Virus record (IMG/VR): IMGVR_UViG_3300046170_000018
Coordinates: 1-54,118 of that record
Direction: 5' to 3' (one strand)
DNA from: a virus
Lineage: Duplodnaviria > Caudoviricetes
DNA: 54,118 nt
Part shown: positions 11,796-24,625 of the stretch, piece by piece
Layout: every line of letters starts with the position of its first letter
How positions within the stretch are numbered: the stretch's first letter is position 1
The notes under the pieces: model-generated
The model's input: the letters and a program-made list of their open reading frames with translations, nothing else
Database searches by the model: none
What the model was told of the DNA's origin: nothing
Made by a program: the position numbers and the translations under genes

Positions 11796-11824
11796 GTTAT
11801 ATCATGCTACGTCTTTAACGTCAA
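11796..11824 (-). promoter_or_regulatory. Sigma70-type promoter for the SSB/nuclease/RNR block
   Basis: TTGACG-17 nt-TATAAC(T) on the minus strand, overlapping the polymerase stop. Confidence 0.7.
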
Positions 11825-13846
11825 GCCAATTCGGACCTATTTTTGCCTCTAATAATAGAGGAACATTGAACTCCACACCCCATCTTAGGGTTGATAAGTT
11901 CAAGGTAGTTATTATTAGTATCTTCTATGACACTGATAACCTGATCTTCTTCATCAGGATGTACATCAATAACTATACTGTCGTGAACAGAATTTACTAT
12001 ACATGATTTCATACCCTGTAGCAAGGCATCAATATGCAATAATGCAATCGGAACAATATCTGCTGTAGCAAATGACTGCACCGGGTAATTCTTAATCTGT
12101 GTAAAGTGTGACACACGCCCACTAGCTTTACGTACCACATCGGGGAACGCAAACTCACGACCACTGGGCGTGGTTATTTTTTGTGTTTCTACAGCCTCTT
12201 TAGCCAGTCGGGAATGCCAAGCTGCGACCCCCTTGTACTTGTCTGTGAAGTGTTCGTAGTACGCTGCTTCTGCTTTGCTCCTACCGTATCCTGTTGCGCC
12301 GTAGAGTGGAGCAAACGTGTGCGCTTTCGCATCCTGTCTACTCGTAGGCTGACCAGCATCGGTAATAACTTTAGCGGTGTATGCATGTACATCAAACCCA
12401 GTAGATACTTCTTCAATTGCAACCTCATCTTGAGATAAATAAGCAGCAGCCCGAAACTCTAGCTGTGCAAAGTCAGCTTCAAGAATCTTGCCACCATCAA
12501 ATCGTGACACAAATACTTTCTTTACAGGAAACGTGCCGCCACGTGGCATGTTCTGCATGTTAGGATTAGCCCCACTAAAGCGACCAGTTGATGTGCGATG
12601 CTGCAATAGACTAACGTGTAACTTACCATCCTGCTTAGTGTAGTTACGTATGCCCTCAACAAAAGAAGATAGATATGTATCCACTGCACTAAGTCGTCTA
12701 ACTTTGTACAAGAAGTCAACTGCATCACTCATACCCTTTGATTTAGCACCAGCCTCTAGTAACTCTAAGTTTTGTTTAGATGTACTGAAACCGTTAGCAC
12801 TTAACCATTTAGCTGAAGGTGGCTTGAATTTAAAACCAGCAAGTGTCTCTGATGGTATAAATAAAAACCCTTCAGTATTACACTGAACACAGCGACTAGG
12901 CTTAGAAAAAGGTTCGCCGTTCTTTTTAGTCTTACGGACATAACCGGAACCGCTGCATGTGCTACACTGCTTGGCAACAGTTTTGTATAGCCTTTCAGTA
13001 CCACCAGTAATCAGGCTACGGAAGTCTGCAGTCTGCCATGTATGGGTCAATAGCATTACCCCAGTATGGTTTGTCCAATACCTTGCGGCTGTAGATAACC
13101 CAAGACAATTGCTCTGGGCTGTTAAGATTGATAGGTGTATCACCCATCAGCTACGTACATGAGCCTGTAAGTCAGTAGTAAGTTGCTGCTTCTCTTGCTC
13201 AAACTCACTGCGTACCTCTTCTAGCTTAGTCAGGTCAACCGCAAAGCCTGTCTGATATATCTTAGTCAGACACTTAGCTACACGATTAGTCAGACGTGTG
13301 GTAGACAAGTAACCTGCATCAGCAGTAGTGTTTAGCCTACGCCATAGCTTTTCAGCAAGCTGCTGTGTAGCGTGAAGGTCAGCCGATAGATACTCAGACA
13401 ACTCAGAGTGAGGAATGTCTCGTGTACTATATCCCCTTCTTGAAGTACTCCTTGAGTGTGTCCTGCTTCTTCGTATCTAACTCATAGCGTTCCGCACATG
13501 CTTCAAGTGACAACGGCTCTTTGATGCCACGCTGTAGTACATACTCGACAAGCATAGTGTCAAACACTGCGCCATCATACTTGAACCCTGACTCCCATAG
13601 CCATAGCAAATCATGTGCCACGTTGTGACATATGAGTACAGTAGTCTCATCAAGCCACTGTTGTACAGTAGCATGACCGTCAGGTGTAGCTACCACCTCA
13701 CTGTGGTCAAAGGTAATAATAACTTCTTCACCCCTGTCATTAAGCATACCCACCATAGTCAATGAGTTGTCTGGCTCAAATGGATCAAGGTGTAGCTTGC
13801 CATCACGCTTAGTCGTTGTATTCTCTACATCAAGTGTTAGTTTCAT
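11802..13846 (-). CDS. polA: Family A DNA polymerase with 3'-5' exonuclease and inserted DnaJ-like zinc finger; broken by probable sequencing frameshifts
   Basis: ExoI LDVE, ExoII HNVAHD, ExoIII YLSAD, TGRFS..PNMQN, motif A DFAQLE, motif B AKAHTFAPLYG (Phe at the Pol I 762 position), motif C VHDS. CSTCSGSG and CVQCNTEG at 12868-12966. Confidence 0.95.
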
Positions 13847-14267
13847 ATCTGCCCATCCTTACTATTCCTGTCTTGTCCAGTGGTATCTGATAGAATAACT
13901 CACCAGACGCTATATATTTATTAGATACCTCAACTGGTGTCAAGTCCTTAATGTCTTCGGACTTAAATAGTATAGCTGAGGTTAGTGGTTTATTCCATAT
14001 GAAGAACAAGGTAGGTGAAGCAAAGAACTTACGCTTGCGTTCTGGTAGCTGCACTGTATCGAATGGGAACTTGTCTGTATCCCACACGGTCTTGACCTCA
14101 CACTCGACATAGAACTTACCCTTGCTGCCTTCAGCAATTAAGTCTTGCCCATAGGTGTTAGGGTTCTCCCATATCTCATAGCCTTTGATCTGCATGTATT
14201 CCATAGTACGGGTACGTGCAGGCTTGTCATGCTTACCATGTAGTGCTTCACTGAATTGTTTCCTCAT
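13830..14267 (-). CDS. Hypothetical protein, possible restriction-endonuclease-fold nuclease
   Basis: DLI...VECEVK fits the PD-(D/E)xK pattern. Overlaps both neighbours. Confidence 0.5.
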   Translation of the reverse strand: MRKQFSEALHGKHDKPARTRTMEYMQIKGYEIWENPNTYGQDLIAEGSKGKFYVECEVKTVWDTDKFPFDTVQLPERKRKFFASPTLFFIWNKPLTSAILFKSEDIKDLTPVEVSNKYIASGELFYQIPLDKTGIVRMGRYETNT

Positions 14268-20522: not shown

Positions 20523-20912
20523 TTATGCTACCTTCCTAATTGCTTTGCGGCCTTGCTTATTACGAGCAAGTTCACGCAGATTACTTACAGTAAACCCACC
20601 AATCTTGATGGAGACTACCTCATCACGGCTCTTACGCCGCACTGCTGCACCTAGTTCCTTGTGCATGCGGTCAAGAAAGATGCCAGCAATTGCCTCTGTC
20701 GTGTACTGTAAGTACCCGCCGCAGTCTTCCTTTGCATGCCGTGCAGCTTGCAGTGCAAGGTCATAGAACTTGTAACGACCAAGCTTCACGCCATGATACT
20801 CAGCATACAAGGCTTCTACTTTAGCAAGCTTTGCTTCTACTTGTGGTGATGCAAGCACTTGTCCTGTCTTGCCTGTTGAACGCTGGTGAAATGTTACAGT
20901 CTTTATAGCCAT
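20523..20912 (-). CDS. Hypothetical basic early protein
   Basis: 129 aa ORF with AAGGAG RBS. Confidence 0.75.
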   Translation of the reverse strand: MAIKTVTFHQRSTGKTGQVLASPQVEAKLAKVEALYAEYHGVKLGRYKFYDLALQAARHAKEDCGGYLQYTTEAIAGIFLDRMHKELGAAVRRKSRDEVVSIKIGGFTVSNLRELARNKQGRKAIRKVA

Positions 20913-20925
20913 GATATAATCTCCT

Positions 20926-21177
20926 TTAGTTGGTTAGTGTGTTAGTAGTTGAGGTTAGTCCAACATTGGACTTGATATGTCTTATGACATACTTGGCACG
21001 ATTGATAAACCACCGTGCTTGTTTTTGGTCATATGACATAACATGTTGTGCATCAGATAGGATAGACATAGCCAACATGCAAGGCATATCTTCGTGCAGC
21101 ATATCTTCCATGTCTAGTGGTGTGCAACCATACAAGTCTAAATACCTGCCATAAATTTCAGCATCATCATTACCCAT
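20926..21177 (-). CDS. Hypothetical protein
   Basis: 83 aa ORF with AGGAG RBS. Contains one palindrome copy (KSNVGL). Confidence 0.6.
   Translation of the reverse strand: MGNDDAEIYGRYLDLYGCTPLDMEDMLHEDMPCMLAMSILSDAQHVMSYDQKQARWFINRAKYVIRHIKSNVGLTSTTNTLTN
20957..20972. repeat. 16-bp palindrome AGTCCAACATTGGACT, copy 1 of 5
   Basis: Exact 7-2-7 inverted repeat. Confidence 0.95.
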
Positions 21178-21301
21178 AGATTTTCTCCTGAATCATGTGT
21201 TTAGTGCGAACCTGTGCTTTACGGGTACGCTTCCAGTCATCACGCTTTGCTTTGCGGGGTTTCACTTTCAGTGACTTCATTTTCTCTACTTTGATTTGCA
21301 T
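21170..21301 (-). CDS. Small highly basic protein, 43 aa
   Basis: Read manually: MQIKVEKMKSLKVKPRKAKRDDWKRTRKAQVR... Confidence 0.5.
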   Translation of the reverse strand: MQIKVEKMKSLKVKPRKAKRDDWKRTRKAQVRTKHMIQEKIYG

Positions 21302-21410
21302 TGTGTTTATCTTTCTTTCTGTTGTATTTGGTTTTGTCTGGCACTGCTTGTGTCCTGCGGCGTGACTGTGCCACTGCCTTCGCTACAGGGTTGATAGGTT
21401 TGATACGCAT
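21240..21410 (-). CDS. Small basic protein with ArfA-like pattern, 56 aa
   Basis: NPVAKAVAQSRRRTQAVPDKTKYNRKKDKH. AGGAG RBS. Confidence 0.6.
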   Translation of the reverse strand: MRIKPINPVAKAVAQSRRRTQAVPDKTKYNRKKDKHNANQSRENEVTESETPQSKA

Positions 21411-21421
21411 TGTCAATGCTC

Positions 21422-21511
21422 CTATGAAAGTGCGTACTGAATAATGTCTACAACTTGTGTGATAGCTAACACAAGAATAATGATATGACCTAAGTGAATT
21501 TTCTCATACAT
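21422..21511 (-). CDS. Hydrophobic 29-aa peptide
   Basis: CGGAG RBS. Sequence MYEKIHLGHIIILVLAITQVVDIIQYALS. Confidence 0.5.
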   Translation of the reverse strand: MYEKIHLGHIIILVLAITQVVDIIQYALS

Positions 21512-21525
21512 ATTAAATCTCCGTT

Positions 21526-21541
21526 AGTCCAACATTGGACT
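21526..21541. repeat. 16-bp palindrome, copy 2 of 5
   Basis: Exact AGTCCAACATTGGACT. Confidence 0.95.
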
Positions 21542-21547
21542 TGTCTA

Positions 21548-21610
21548 GTATATCTAAGTAAATATATTACTTTCACTAAAGTATCAAGTAATATTTTACA
21601 TAAGATATAC
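21548..21610. other. Long intergenic hairpin H1 with conserved loop
   Basis: ATATTACTT-[TCACTAAAGTATC]-AAGTAATAT plus outer GTATATCT/AGATATAC pairing. Confidence 0.8.
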
Positions 21611-21618
21611 ATAAGAGG

Positions 21619-22254
21619 TTAAGCGATACCATGCAGCTTTCGCCATGTAACCCATGTAATCGCCTGCAATTCATATGCTTTCAGCTTACGACCATTGACA
21701 CGGCAACGACTAGCAGCTTGGCGATAGGCATCTTGCAGATTGCGATACTCGACAATGCCAATATTGGTTTTGTTATCGGTCAGATTGACACGCTCATTGT
21801 ATGCAATGTTTCGGGCATGTCCATCTACGGTACAGGTATCATCACCCATGATGTTCTCATAGAAACAGACAATCTTCTTGCCATTAAGAATAGTCTTAAT
21901 GCTGTCATGGCTTGGTCTAATCTGCCCTAGTATCTGCCATGCCTTGTCTCGCATAGCATTGTAGGTGCAGACAGATACACTATCTACGCTACGACCATTG
22001 ACAAACGCATCAATCAAATCACGGGCATTTGTCACATTGGTAGACCAACGATTGTTAGGTGACAATGCCGCCACAACGCCAGCGGCAACATGAATAGAGA
22101 TGCCATAGGATTTGTATTGCTCCGCAAGTTGGCGGCACTCCTCGTATGCTTCGGCATACCATGCAATGCCATGTGCCACATCTTCAGGCTTTGCCTTGCG
22201 GCGCATAGCGATAATGTTTTTGATAGCGATTTGCATATTAAATTCGGTTTTCAT
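21619..22254 (-). CDS. Conserved phage protein with HhH-GPD glycosylase-like features
   Basis: WY..A, AALSP...W..N, K...FY.NI, TVDGH and LQAITW motifs. Confidence 0.55.
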   Translation of the reverse strand: MKTEFNMQIAIKNIIAMRRKAKPEDVAHGIAWYAEAYEECRQLAEQYKSYGISIHVAAGVVAALSPNNRWSTNVTNARDLIDAFVNGRSVDSVSVCTYNAMRDKAWQILGQIRPSHDSIKTILNGKKIVCFYENIMGDDTCTVDGHARNIAYNERVNLTDNKTNIGIVEYRNLQDAYRQAASRCRVNGRKLKAYELQAITWVTWRKLHGIA

Positions 22255-22258
22255 AGTG

Positions 22259-22486
22259 TTACTCCGTAAAAGGTGGTTCCATAGGGAACGTGGTTACAAT
22301 TTCAAAGTCATCAGTCATCCAGCGTATATCACTAGTCTGGACGGATTGCAAGCGCATTGAGCCACTAGGCCATGCTGGTGTCCTGTCAGGCAAAGGTATC
22401 ACCTGCCACAACTCACCATGCTCATTGACACGATTCTTGCCATGGCGGGTCTTACCCTGCAAGATAACGATTTTTCCTGTTTGCAT
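22259..22486 (-). CDS. Hypothetical protein, 75 aa (GKTRHGKNRVNEHG motif)
   Basis: GGAG RBS before the ATG at 22486. The longer 142-aa call overlaps the neighbouring gene. Confidence 0.65.
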   Translation of the reverse strand: MQTGKIVILQGKTRHGKNRVNEHGELWQVIPLPDRTPAWPSGSMRLQSVQTSDIRWMTDDFEIVTTFPMEPPFTE

Positions 22487-22763
22487 TTTGTTTCTCCACT
22501 TCGTGAATACAAGCCTGCAAATACCCCCAATGCCTTGGGCAATCAGGTGGATCACCCTCAAATGACATGACAGATGCTTCAGCATCATAGATGTTATAGT
22601 CAATGTCAAGCCTTGCTTGCTGATAGCCTTCATCATATTCAGCATAGTAAAAGGTTTCAGCATGACAAAAACCACAATAGTAATCATCCGAACTGTTCAC
22701 ATAGAACAGGTCAATATGAGTGTACGGTGTGTCACAACAAGCACATTTTCTAGCCATATTCAA
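22452..22763 (-). CDS. Hypothetical zinc-binding protein
   Basis: CACC...CGFC. CGGAG RBS. Confidence 0.65.
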   Translation of the reverse strand: MNMARKCACCDTPYTHIDLFYVNSSDDYYCGFCHAETFYYAEYDEGYQQARLDIDYNIYDAEASVMSFEGDPPDCPRHWGYLQACIHEVEKQNANRKNRYLAG

Positions 22764-22778
22764 ATCTCCGATTTGTTA

Positions 22779-22794
22779 AGTCCAACATTGGACT
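22779..22794. repeat. 16-bp palindrome, copy 3 of 5
   Basis: Exact AGTCCAACATTGGACT. Confidence 0.95.
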
Positions 22795-22803
22795 AGGTTA
22801 GTA

Positions 22804-22860
22804 GTGTATATAAGTAATAACACTATCACTAATGTTCTAGTGTTATTACGTTATTCACAC
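22804..22860. other. Long intergenic hairpin H2 with conserved loop
   Basis: GTAATAACACTA-[TCACTAATGTTC]-TAGTGTTATTAC, a perfect 12-bp stem. Confidence 0.85.
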
Positions 22861-23078
22861 TAAAGCAAGCTGTCAAGTATTGCCAAGGCATCAGCCTTGT
22901 CTTTTTCCTTGCGATAGGTATCCAGCATAGCATCCGCTTGACCTGTCACATAAACCCGAAACTCAGGCCGTGTCTCAGGCTCATAGCTACGGCTGAAAGC
23001 CAGTGTATCCATAGCTTTCCAACTAGAGCCTACGGCTTTGTGCCGACCCATGTCAATGATTGCACCACGTTTAGCCAT
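22860..23078 (-). CDS. Hypothetical early protein (MAKRGAIIDMG...)
   Basis: ACGGAG RBS before the ATG at 23078. Confidence 0.7.
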   Translation of the reverse strand: MAKRGAIIDMGRHKAVGSSWKAMDTLAFSRSYEPETRPEFRVYVTGQADAMLDTYRKEKDKADALAILDSLL

Positions 23079-23118
23079 GTTATTTACTCCGTAAATTGAG
23101 GGCATCTAGACTGCAGCA

Positions 23119-23721
23119 TTAAGCTGCAGCCTTTGTGTTAGCGGCATCAAGCATCTCAAGTTGCTCTTTCAGAGCCGCAAGGAATGATGCTTTTGAGATG
23201 CCATTCATCTCACAATCAAGCAAAGCTTGCATTGCAATGTCTGAAGCAGACTTTGGATCATTAGCCTTATCAGCTTCGCTGTCTAGTCCAACATTGGACT
23301 TGTCATCAGCCTTCGGCTCTACAGGTGTCTCTGTATCAGCCTTCGGCTTTGGATCAGCCTTTGGCTTCATGGCAGCTTGTAAAGCTGTAAGACTGGTAAA
23401 GCCCTTTTTGCTTTTAGCAATGAAGTCACGACAAGCTGTCTCATTCGCAGCAAACCACATGGCTTCGCTTCTACGGCGTTTGTCGATACCGGCAATGCCA
23501 CAATCTTTCAGCCTTGCTGAAGCGATACGATCACCGCCTTCAGCCTTCAGCTTTAGCATCAGCTTTCCAAGCCGTGTATCAAAGCCATCAGCCTTCGTTG
23601 ACTTGGTGAAACGAGCCTTATCACCTTTGGTGATTTGCTTCCATTCTTTAGCCAAGGCAAAGCCTTCAGCTTCCAGAGTGTTGTTTACAACAGGGACGAT
23701 TTGAGTTGATGAATTTTCCAT
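23119..23721 (-). CDS. First gene of the early arm, Lys/Ala-rich hypothetical protein
   Basis: 200 aa with AAGGA RBS. PK-repeat linker. Contains one palindrome copy. Confidence 0.75.
   Translation of the reverse strand: MENSSTQIVPVVNNTLEAEGFALAKEWKQITKGDKARFTKSTKADGFDTRLGKLMLKLKAEGGDRIASARLKDCGIAGIDKRRRSEAMWFAANETACRDFIAKSKKGFTSLTALQAAMKPKADPKPKADTETPVEPKADDKSNVGLDSEADKANDPKSASDIAMQALLDCEMNGISKASFLAALKEQLEMLDAANTKAAA
23285..23300. repeat. 16-bp palindrome, copy 4 of 5 (inside a CDS)
   Basis: Exact AGTCCAACATTGGACT. Confidence 0.95.
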
Positions 23722-23737
23722 TTCGGCTTCCTTTATA

Positions 23738-23815
23738 CTATCTTTAGGTTTTATAGGGAGATATCCCCTTTCACTACGTTCAAGGGGTATATCCCGTAAA
23801 ACCGTAAGAAGATAG
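23738..23815. other. Long hairpin H3 with conserved loop, upstream of the first early gene
   Basis: GGTTTTATAGGGAGATATCCCCTT-[TCACTACGTTC]-AAGGGGTATATCCCGTAAAACC plus outer CTATCTT/AAGATAG pairing. Confidence 0.8.
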
Positions 23816-23984
23816 ATATAAGTTTGAGGTTGAAGCCTCGCCTGCGATCCTCTGCGCCTGCCGTTTCGCCTGCGGTTGCAGCTATCTTCGATAGCGAAAC
23901 TCGTGCGCTAAACTCGTGACACATAGCGAGGCTTGGCAGATTGTGGTGGCTGGTATGACTATCACCTTCAGTGATAGGGGGTGT

Positions 23985-24000
23985 AGTCCAACATTGGACT
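23985..24000. repeat. 16-bp palindrome, copy 5 of 5
   Basis: Exact AGTCCAACATTGGACT. Confidence 0.95.
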
Positions 24001-24344
24001 TATGGTTCACCTTTGGTGAAAGGATTAGATGCATCAACCTTACAACTTGTTGTAAATCTGTAGGTCTGGCCTTCACAAATCATCTTTCAGATGGCAACTG
24101 ATACCATAACAGTTGTTCCAACTGGGTTTGGTTGGTCAACTACTGCATATTCTATGCAATATCAAGGGCTTGCTTGGCTATCTGCCTCTAATCCTGCGCT
24201 TGGTTGCGCATAATGCTGGCGCACACACGCCTTAGAGAGGGGGCAGGCAGGAGCCAGCCGGGGGTGGGGGCGTTATATGTATGTAGAAATACACAGATCA
24301 GGTAAATTCACTGTTAACCACACTAACAACTGACACTATGTACA

Positions 24345-24380
24345 TGCACAAGCATTGTGCAACTGCCTAAAAAATAGGCA
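24345..24380. promoter_or_regulatory. Two tandem 17-bp TGC-N11-GCA palindromes (NtrC-box-like)
   Basis: TGCACAAGCATTGTGCA (24345-24361) and TGCCTAAAAAATAGGCA (24364-24380). Confidence 0.5.
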
Positions 24381-24427
24381 ACTGTAGATACCCCTATGGA
24401 CCATTTCGCCTATTCATAATAAATGAC

Positions 24428-24456
24428 TTGACAAGCTATGAAAAATCTGCTATAAT
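24428..24456 (+). promoter_or_regulatory. Perfect-consensus sigma70 promoter driving the plus arm
   Basis: TTGACA-17 nt-TATAAT. Confidence 0.85.
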
Positions 24457-24462
24457 TATATA

Positions 24463-24580
24463 TAACTTAAACACACTTAAAGTGTTTCACTTAACTACTA
24501 TATAGTTAAATTATAAATACACTTAAATGTATTATATATTTTCTTTGTTAACTCACTTAACTATAACACTTTAAATGTAC
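24463..24580 (+). repeat. AT-rich tract with CACTTAA short repeats
   Basis: CACTTAA at 24474, 24488, 24520 and 24554. CACTTTAA at 24567. Confidence 0.7.
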
Positions 24581-24625
24581 CCTCTATAAATTAATATTTG
24601 TGCTTATTAAAGAAAGTTCTTGACA

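Follow-up and report, generated by a model that had tools for sequence, protein, structure and literature searches.

What reads five identical palindromes at the head of one gene arm of a phage, and to what end? We address this question for the IMG/VR virus record IMGVR_UViG_3300046170_000018, whose whole 54118-bp sequence, classed as linear by IMG/VR and estimated by CheckV to be 69% complete, is called here the window. Its gene content fits an HMO-2011-type podophage, and the region around the palindromes is 75% identical to Puniceispirillum phage HMO-2011 and, over parts, 84% identical to Roseobacter phage CRP-1. Minus-strand genes run from 24076 down to 5369 and plus-strand genes from 24620 onward; the palindromes occupy the first 3 kb of the minus-strand arm, which would be the early arm judging from its gene order (small open reading frames, then integrase, primase, helicase and polymerase). 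Together with the product of the first gene of this arm, a protein of 200 amino acids (aa), the palindrome most likely forms a regulator-and-site pair common to many HMO-2011 relatives. Comparison of sequences and structure prediction further suggest that the five copies probably make up a dispersed array of operators, and that the new DNA-binding regulator bound to them would be a homodimer that silences or times the early arm.

An earlier, sequence-only reading of the window had listed five identical copies with a CA core in a single orientation and none elsewhere in the genome, and an exact search agrees. The palindrome AGTCCAACATTGGACT occurs on the plus strand at 20957, 21526, 22779, 23285 and 23985, at spacings of 569, 1253, 506 and 700 bp, and its centre is CA on that strand in all five copies (TG on the minus strand, the strand of the local genes, along which the site reads AGTCCAATGTTGGACT). 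When up to 3 mismatches are allowed, the whole record yields 10 matches, which are the same five places on both strands, while 0.71 ± 0.78 are expected by chance (largest 3; 0 of 100 shuffles reached 10). The looser pattern GTCCNNNNNNGGAC (GTCC-N6-GGAC) finds the same five places only in the 54118 bp, and a reversed control pattern finds none.

All five sites are exact matches. Site 1 (23985..24000) belongs to the untranslated leader of the 200-aa gene (gp200; 23119..23721, minus strand; equivalent to gp74 of HMO-2011), whose start it precedes by 264 nt, and site 2 (23285..23300) lies inside that gene, at codons 141-146, in a linker predicted to be disordered. Site 3 (22779..22794) follows a long hairpin by 7 nt and precedes the ATG at 22757 by 21 nt, and site 4 (21526..21541), preceded by an AT-rich hairpin that is likewise long, stands 14 nt ahead of the ATG at 21511, with a GGAG Shine-Dalgarno sequence beginning 3 nt after the site. 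Finally, site 5 (20957..20972) overlaps the C-terminal tail of an 83-aa open reading frame (20926-21177), 44 nt before the ATG at 20912. Translation bears out the earlier remark that the two copies inside reading frames, those of the 200-aa and the 83-aa products, both encode KSNVGL.

The evidence that ties the palindromes to the 200-aa gene comes from relatives. We fetched 80 viral loci by means of the DUF7178 gene, which lies between sites 3 and 4, and divided them into close (at least 64% identity, 22 loci) and distant (58 loci). The element is present in 22/22 close loci and repeated in 0/58 distant ones, 10 of which hold a single match to the loose pattern and 48 none. By blastp the 200-aa gene is found in 21/22 site-bearing loci versus 0/58 site-less loci, and a six-frame search with the profile of its family returns the same counts even at E <= 10; the sole miss (L021) is a locus cut 85 nt upstream of DUF7178. 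A second set of 80 further loci, fetched through the 200-aa protein, has the element in 80/80 cases, with 1-9 copies depending on the length of DNA present; there the first site precedes the gene by about 150-420 nt, and the roughly 3.3-3.6 kb beyond it are free of sites. Taking both locus sets, the gene is present in 101/102 site-bearing loci versus 0/58 site-less ones. Furthermore, the divergence of the protein follows the site: its identity to the copy in the window is 62-91% in genomes of the same site class and 34-46% in those of other classes, and the identities of the neighbours gp81, gp129 and gp59 (81, 129 and 59 aa) lack any such pattern.

The 81-aa gene (22860-23105), next to the 200-aa gene, has the same presence by blastp (21/22 versus 0/58), and its product may be a partner of the regulator. 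This protein carries the conserved motifs GRHKP.GSSW and VTGQ, and its structural model is poor (predicted local distance difference test, pLDDT, 60; predicted template modelling score 0.23). Two other genes were considered as correlates of the sites and rejected. DUF7230, an arginine-rich product of 58 aa (21240-21416), occurs in 16/58 site-less loci and is thus unlinked, and the integrase does not discriminate, being present in 5/5 genomes with the 200-aa gene and in 5/5 without it.

The sequence-only reading was open to refutation by relatives that lack the palindrome or carry scattered copies; what was found is the element at matching positions and confined to one stretch per genome. HMO-2011 carries AGTCCGACAGCGGACT five times, once with an inverted centre (site 3), at spacings of 929, 535, 1201 and 665 bp, which resemble the 700, 506, 1253 and 569 bp of the window read in the same direction, and the version of CRP-1 is YGTCCAAYRTTGGACR. 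The loose pattern has 5 matches in each of the window, HMO-2011 and CRP-1, and its reversed control 0. Among five relatives that are at least 99% complete, 23/25 loose matches fall within one 1.6-5.1-kb stretch per genome, and the remaining two have unrelated inner sequences. GTCC and GGAC are fixed, and the inner six bases and the flanking base vary between genomes and are uniform within a genome; the site classes include AGTCCAAnnTTGGACT, CGTCCAAnnTTGGACA, AGTCCGACAGCGGACT, GGTCCGACAGCGGACC, AGTCCGCTGACGGACT, AGTCCGATGTCGGACT and CGTCCTACCTAGGACA. Site 2 keeps its reading frame in relatives, where it encodes SNVG, SADG or SDSG, and the gene content between sites differs from one relative to another.

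What kind of protein accompanies the sites? The 200-aa family comprises at least 2667 clusters at 90% identity (8000 candidates scored), none of them named and none with a Pfam domain. The AlphaFold model (mean pLDDT 72) has a helical N-domain at about 14-118, a disordered stretch at 122-153 and two C-terminal helices at 159-198; the linker 122-153, which contains site 2, has pLDDT < 50. The N-domain is basic (isoelectric point 9.8) and the linker and C-domain are acidic. A symmetric homodimer is predicted with a score of 0.80, the best of 3 controls reaching 0.02; three runs share at least 64% of contacts, with a partner pLDDT of at least 72. The mark used for such predictions is reached by 20/30 solved homodimers and 1/23 solved single chains, a calibration that is only roughly valid here since our own alignment was used. 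In the predicted dimer the interface involves residues 16-30, 47-61, 73-79 and 156-191, so that residues 94-118 lie outside it and the helices 94-103 and 109-118 are left free.

These two helices read, with the turn between them, as CRDFIAKSKKG-FTSLTALQAAM, in which we recognise a possible helix-turn-helix (HTH) pattern. The proposed recognition helix is TSLTALQAAM (codons 109-118, 23368..23397, minus strand), which follows the turn SKKG and in which positions 112 and 116 change along with the fifth base of the half-site. In a comparison of 97 genomes, T112 goes with A at base 5 in 64, with mixed sites in 4 and with G in 3; S112 together with K116 goes with G in 5/5, and S112 with R116 is found beside mixed sites in 7 and mostly A in 3; K112 goes with G in 9/9. 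The only Q112 genome has T at base 5, and a close relative of it with V112 has A. The S112 forms occur in at least three different sequence backgrounds. A change from threonine to serine plus a gained lysine, where A:T becomes G:C, would plausibly suit reading in the major groove. The idea that the arginine-rich helix DKRRRSEA sets base 5 did not survive the comparison, for this helix is identical in A-site and G-site genomes.

The sequence-only reading had taken the palindromes for dimer-binding sites and named the product of the first gene as a candidate binder. Both suggestions gain support from the co-occurrence in the two locus sets, from the predicted homodimer and from the paired changes of residue and half-site. 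We infer DNA binding, the recognition helix and an effect on transcription, and the mechanism that we propose is the following. GTCC-N6-GGAC operators would be bound by a symmetric homodimer of the first minus-strand gene product (23721..23119, 200 aa), each subunit placing one HTH-like helix (109-118) into one half-site. Along some 3 kb, one site stands in the regulator's own leader, a second within its reading frame and the other three shortly before the starts of downstream genes, a layout that suggests negative control of the arm with self-limitation. The regulator would thus hold down or switch off transcription of the arm, its own gene included, either as a roadblock to elongation or from operators beside internal starts. 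It might be used as a timer for the shut-off of lytic early genes, for prophage silencing or for immunity against related phages. With regard to lysogeny, a prophage search with the single 200-aa protein gave 50 pattern matches, none of them confirmed; such a search reaches close relatives only and is no evidence against lysogeny.

Several results weigh against an operator array read by this protein. As for the fold, the HTH pattern is our own reading of the sequence; Pfam searches with 15 family members at E <= 10 gave no family, and in particular no ParB, KorB or HTH; a PDB profile search with the 200-aa family gave nothing meaningful; and Foldseek with the 200-aa model gave no match at E <= 0.001. 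Exhaustive structural alignment with VIA-align placed the KorB operator-binding domain first (1r71_A, Z 5.2, root-mean-square deviation 3.4, 84 residues), with Spo0J (1vz0_A) at Z 3.8, and the KorB value is barely above unrelated helical matches at Z 4.8 and below; we treat it as a weak lead and not as a fold assignment. The ESM Atlas likewise returned weak leads only, at scores of at most 0.90 (DUF3102, a closterovirus coat protein and the T4 translation repressor family). As for the paired changes, the tree-corrected covariation is not significant: 6 independent pairs on supported branches, of which about 3 agree, 0 disagree and 3 are without difference, give p 0.125-0.25 in a sign test, on a tree built from the N-domain with the trait columns included. 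One codon, TCT, is used in all S112 lineages, so that a short recombined segment is possible. Moreover, class V genomes combine T112 with G sites, and a few G-C sites occur in some T112 genomes (1 of 5 sites in L028 and L101, 2 of 4 in L169).

The other points on this side concern RNA. In the alternative that survives best, which we nevertheless consider unlikely, the element works on the early transcript as a hairpin of 5-6 bp with a 4-nt loop, whose reader would be a host factor or the 200-aa protein, the latter by way of DKRRRSEA. Such a hairpin might be a nut/boxB-like antitermination signal, a translational operator near the ribosome-binding site, or a 5' protective or processing hairpin, the last together with the long hairpins nearby, which look like RNase III substrates. 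As RNA the 16-mer can indeed fold into a 6-bp hairpin, which is predicted for each of the five copies at -7 to -7.5 kcal/mol, and the context is RNA-like, with sites 3-45 nt ahead of start codons, near ribosome-binding sites and beside clearly covarying hairpins; site 2, however, is inside a translated region. We pooled 486 sites, which reduce to 314 unique sequences. Across the latter the inner pair is A-T in 223, G-C in 68, T-A in 3 and C-G in 1, hence Watson-Crick in 295/314, so its changes compensate as a stem would require. The outer GTCC/GGAC pairs, on the other hand, never covary in the 486 sites, where the neighbouring hairpins covary freely, and this invariance points to base-specific reading beyond pairing alone. 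At positions 5/10 of the sense strand G..T exceeds A..C (10 versus 2), as expected of RNA, but a single group of closely related loci (L122-L134) supplies 9/10 of these G..T sites, and at the outermost position A..C is found in 75 unique sites versus G..T in 11.

The loop gives a similarly divided answer. Its strand bias (centre TG 155 versus CA 65; ACAG 25 versus CTGT 2) hints at a strand-specific constraint, yet its sequence is not conserved, with AUGU, ACGU, ACAU, ACAG, CUGA and other variants, and the centre flips within genomes (HMO-2011 site 3; L026). Copying of an oriented cassette can explain the strand biases, and transcription-linked mutation might also produce them. The RNA alternative recalls the N/nut system of phage lambda, in which a small leader hairpin, nutL, precedes an RNase III-sensitive hairpin and the first early gene, N, whose product has an arginine-rich helix; the order here is similar, a leader hairpin, a long hairpin and then the first gene. 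It differs in that the loop is variable and flipping and the stem invariant, the opposite of the conserved loop of boxB, and in that the sites number five or more, where lambda has one per operon, and the protein is folded and predicted to be dimeric. Half-site centres are 10 bp apart, one helical turn, and the predicted two-fold dimer suits a 14-16-bp duplex better than a 6-bp stem. A dimer with shifting specificity would explain both the symmetric changes and the changes in all copies at once. On balance we favour the palindromes acting as duplex DNA binding sites, a role that does not exclude one in RNA.

The long hairpins deserve description, since they share the junctions with the sites. 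The AT-rich hairpin before site 4 (21544..21616, minus strand) folds at -19.8 kcal/mol (z -4.1), and 12/25 of its predicted pairs show compensatory changes among 12 sequences; its apical ACTTTAGTGAAAGT is the most conserved part. The hairpin before site 3 (22802..22862, minus strand) folds at -25.8 kcal/mol (z -7.1), as well as which 0/200 shuffles fold. A third (23730..23829, minus strand; -33.6 kcal/mol, z -4.1) is followed immediately not by a palindrome but by the ribosome-binding site of gp200, and its equivalents in relatives have, by eye, a different sequence. The long hairpins span 25-35 bp and look like RNase III-type substrates or cruciform-forming palindromes. Hairpin and palindrome are separable: at the corresponding junction L031 has the hairpin without the site, and L032 and L035 have neither. 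The apical motif (GTGAA) stands upstream of only 63/369 unique sites. Before site 4, GTGAAA-18-TATACT reaches a promoter score of 9 of 12; the -10 hexamer is not constant across 28 modules, and promoter-like matches are not enriched in the region (18 versus 14.1 ± 4.2 expected). A terminator scan found no terminator at the five palindromes, the bases that follow being TAAC, AAC, AGAC or ACAC, without a T run.

Site 1 is itself flanked by two other small hairpin-forming palindromes, and a three-hairpin fold is predicted. The two belong to a second small palindrome family, (T/A)TCACC-N3-GGTGA(A/T), with three copies (24005-24020, 23960-23975 and 23619-23634), the third of which lies inside the 200-aa gene. 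At the flanking positions relatives have other palindromes, for instance AACATC-TTT-GATGTT, three times in L020 and L037.

A host protein had also been put forward as the binder. An alphaproteobacterial transcription factor or nucleoid protein would recognise the palindromes, and the phage would use it to time or shield its early arm. This would agree with the earlier observation, upheld by our Pfam and PHROGs scans of the region, that no repressor or HTH gene is recognisable; nor could any of the phage proteins be placed in a known DNA-binding family. It has to be set against the fact that site presence tracks a phage gene in 101/102 loci with sites versus 0/58 without. GTCC/GGAC is invariant even though cultured relatives infect different hosts (HMO-2011 SAR116, CRP-1 Roseobacter), which speaks for a conserved host factor, and what speaks against one is that the inner bases and the flank, which are not the same even in close relatives, change simultaneously in every copy of a genome. 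A search of bacterial genomes totalling 596 Gbp for the 16-mer (centre Y/R) gave no fewer than 120 loci from many unrelated phyla; among the matches listed, 119 are single copies and one locus has two, which fits chance, with no host regulon or prophage cluster among them. We therefore judge a host binder very improbable, because all copies change together with the phage protein.

In the last alternative the repeats are mainly boundary or recombination cassettes of the kind that T4-type phages have in their PeSLs (promoter-early stem-loops); recombination would both spread them and keep them uniform, and no protein would be dedicated to binding them. According to PMC2839356, PeSLs combine a strong sigma-70-like promoter with a terminator stem-loop, act as cassettes that mediate shuffling, and are short repeated modules between small early genes where the gene content of relatives differs. 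The optional modules described above and the variable gene content between sites agree with this, as do metatranscriptome contigs of relatives that jump or diverge at the palindromes (joints 20974->23269 and 22795->23266, loose end 20987). Small shares of the region (0.06-0.14) were found in eight metatranscriptome runs, all as Logan contigs. Sequences of relatives are present in these RNA libraries, and contigs were compared in four of the eight (X1, X2, X4 and X8), which showed no point at which a molecule starts or stops. The jumps fit sites that are junctions of mosaic gene blocks, or assembly breaks induced by the repeats. Still, cassettes without a binder are scarcely probable, since recombination alone leaves unexplained the invariant GTCC/GGAC with symmetric inner changes, the in-frame site kept inside a coding linker and the exact tracking of one gene, and since a sigma-70-type promoter is not established here, the palindrome has neither U-tract nor terminator, and copies lie also in the leader and inside a gene. 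A cassette role could exist alongside the operator role.

The operator array that we favour finds its closest described logic, by analogy, in the stoperators of Cluster A mycobacteriophages (L5, Bxb1). Passages of PMC6550527 describe a short site (13 bp, asymmetric) in many copies (20-30 per genome) within transcribed DNA, mostly away from promoters, genome-wide and oriented with transcription, at which bound repressor blocks elongation, and report that repressor and motif diverge together into immunity groups. The present sites are similarly dispersed (5-9 per genome), with genome-specific variants and a protein whose divergence tracks the site class. They differ in being palindromic, 14-16 bp long and restricted to one arm, with centre orientation mixed within genomes, and in that the putative binder is the first gene of the regulated arm, with a site inside its own coding sequence. 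The protein has no detectable relation to any named family, and repressor sequences were not compared directly. Of the three roles first proposed for the palindromes (stoperator-like silencing, protection or loading of the first-injected DNA, and stepwise DNA entry), analogy exists only for the first, and no result speaks for the other two.

KorB offers a second parallel. It is a dimer whose palindrome occurs in about a dozen copies across the IncP replicon, and it represses genes, some of them at a distance; in KorB a flexible linker joins the DNA-binding domain to a C-terminal domain that dimerises. The layout predicted for the 200-aa protein is similar, and its N-domain gave the weak match to 1r71_A mentioned above. 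In contrast to KorB, the 15 members searched with Pfam (E <= 10) have no ParB-type N-terminal (CTP-binding) domain, the predicted dimer interface also involves the N-domain, and no ParA/IncC or KorA partner genes were seen in Pfam and PHROGs scans of the window.

The rest of the window places the array in its genome. Pfam and PHROGs recognise a tyrosine integrase, primase, DnaB-type helicase and a family A DNA polymerase with a DnaJ-type zinc motif, as well as endonuclease I, ribonucleotide reductase, MazG, an SU10-type portal and adaptor, and terminase. A perfect TTGACA-17-TATAAT promoter with an extended TG (24428-24456) points rightward into the plus-strand arm of lysis and structural genes. 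Beside it, at 24345-24380, lie two further palindromes, TGCCTA-N6-TAGGCA and TGCACAA-N3-TTGTGCA. They may serve a separate switch as its operators, and a conserved TTGCAC...TAGTGT, overlapped by the second of them, could be the leftward promoter. The roughly 900 bp between the divergent arms (23722-24619) are without a convincing open reading frame. This DNA is kept with respect to HMO-2011 (75%) and, across many relatives, in blocks such as TGTGGTTAACAGTGAATTTACCT, CAACTGTTATGGTATCAGTTGCCAT and GAAACGGCAGGCGCAGAGGAT, and its part at about 24225-24270 is rich in GC. Conceivably it is an origin, a packaging region or a leader that is long and structured. Rfam gave 0 matches at gathering score in the whole window, the inter-arm region included, and a tRNA scan of the window found no tRNA.

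The DNA polymerase region (11821-14267) is split into open reading frames at 13830-14267, 13427-13846 (exonuclease), 13147-13401 and 11821-13143 (zinc motif and polymerase), and its HMO-2011 counterpart is one 2043-bp gene; frameshifts, assembly errors or a real split could account for this. Five loci without the 200-aa gene (L057, L058, L072, L078 and L080) have another dyad, TGTCA-N6-TGACA with non-complementary A/T-rich centres, in 3-5 copies within about 300 bp upstream of early genes (e.g. L072 2347-2680), an arrangement that resembles a classical cluster of operators.

HMO-2011-type phages are among the most abundant viral groups of the ocean, and their papers describe no regulatory circuit. 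In the comparative paper on these phages (PMC9038755) a full-text term search gives 0 occurrences each of promoter, palindrome and repressor. No paper joining 'HMO-2011' with 'inverted repeat' was found by a search that left the original HMO-2011 description outside, and the 'HMO-2011' papers that mention 'palindrom' or 'operator' have other subjects, as far as their titles and abstract openings indicate. The present analysis offers a concrete, testable candidate for a regulator-operator pair: its site of 14-16 bp is defined, its gene has a name, one helix is a candidate for recognition, and variants of its specificity occur in nature. A large orphan protein family also gains a likely function from it. 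A more ambitious version is put forward tentatively, as one that we would sooner doubt than expect: a new and very abundant regulator family running a self-limiting early programme, in which the dimer on 5-9 operators would be an early shut-off or prophage silencer as well as a determinant of immunity groups, and T112S/A116K would re-target it from GTCCA to GTCCG. If this were true, re-targeting by one or two residues would let co-occurring ocean phages escape each other's control. The pair thus opens questions about the timing of lysis and lysogeny, superinfection immunity and mosaic evolution in HMO-2011-type phages.

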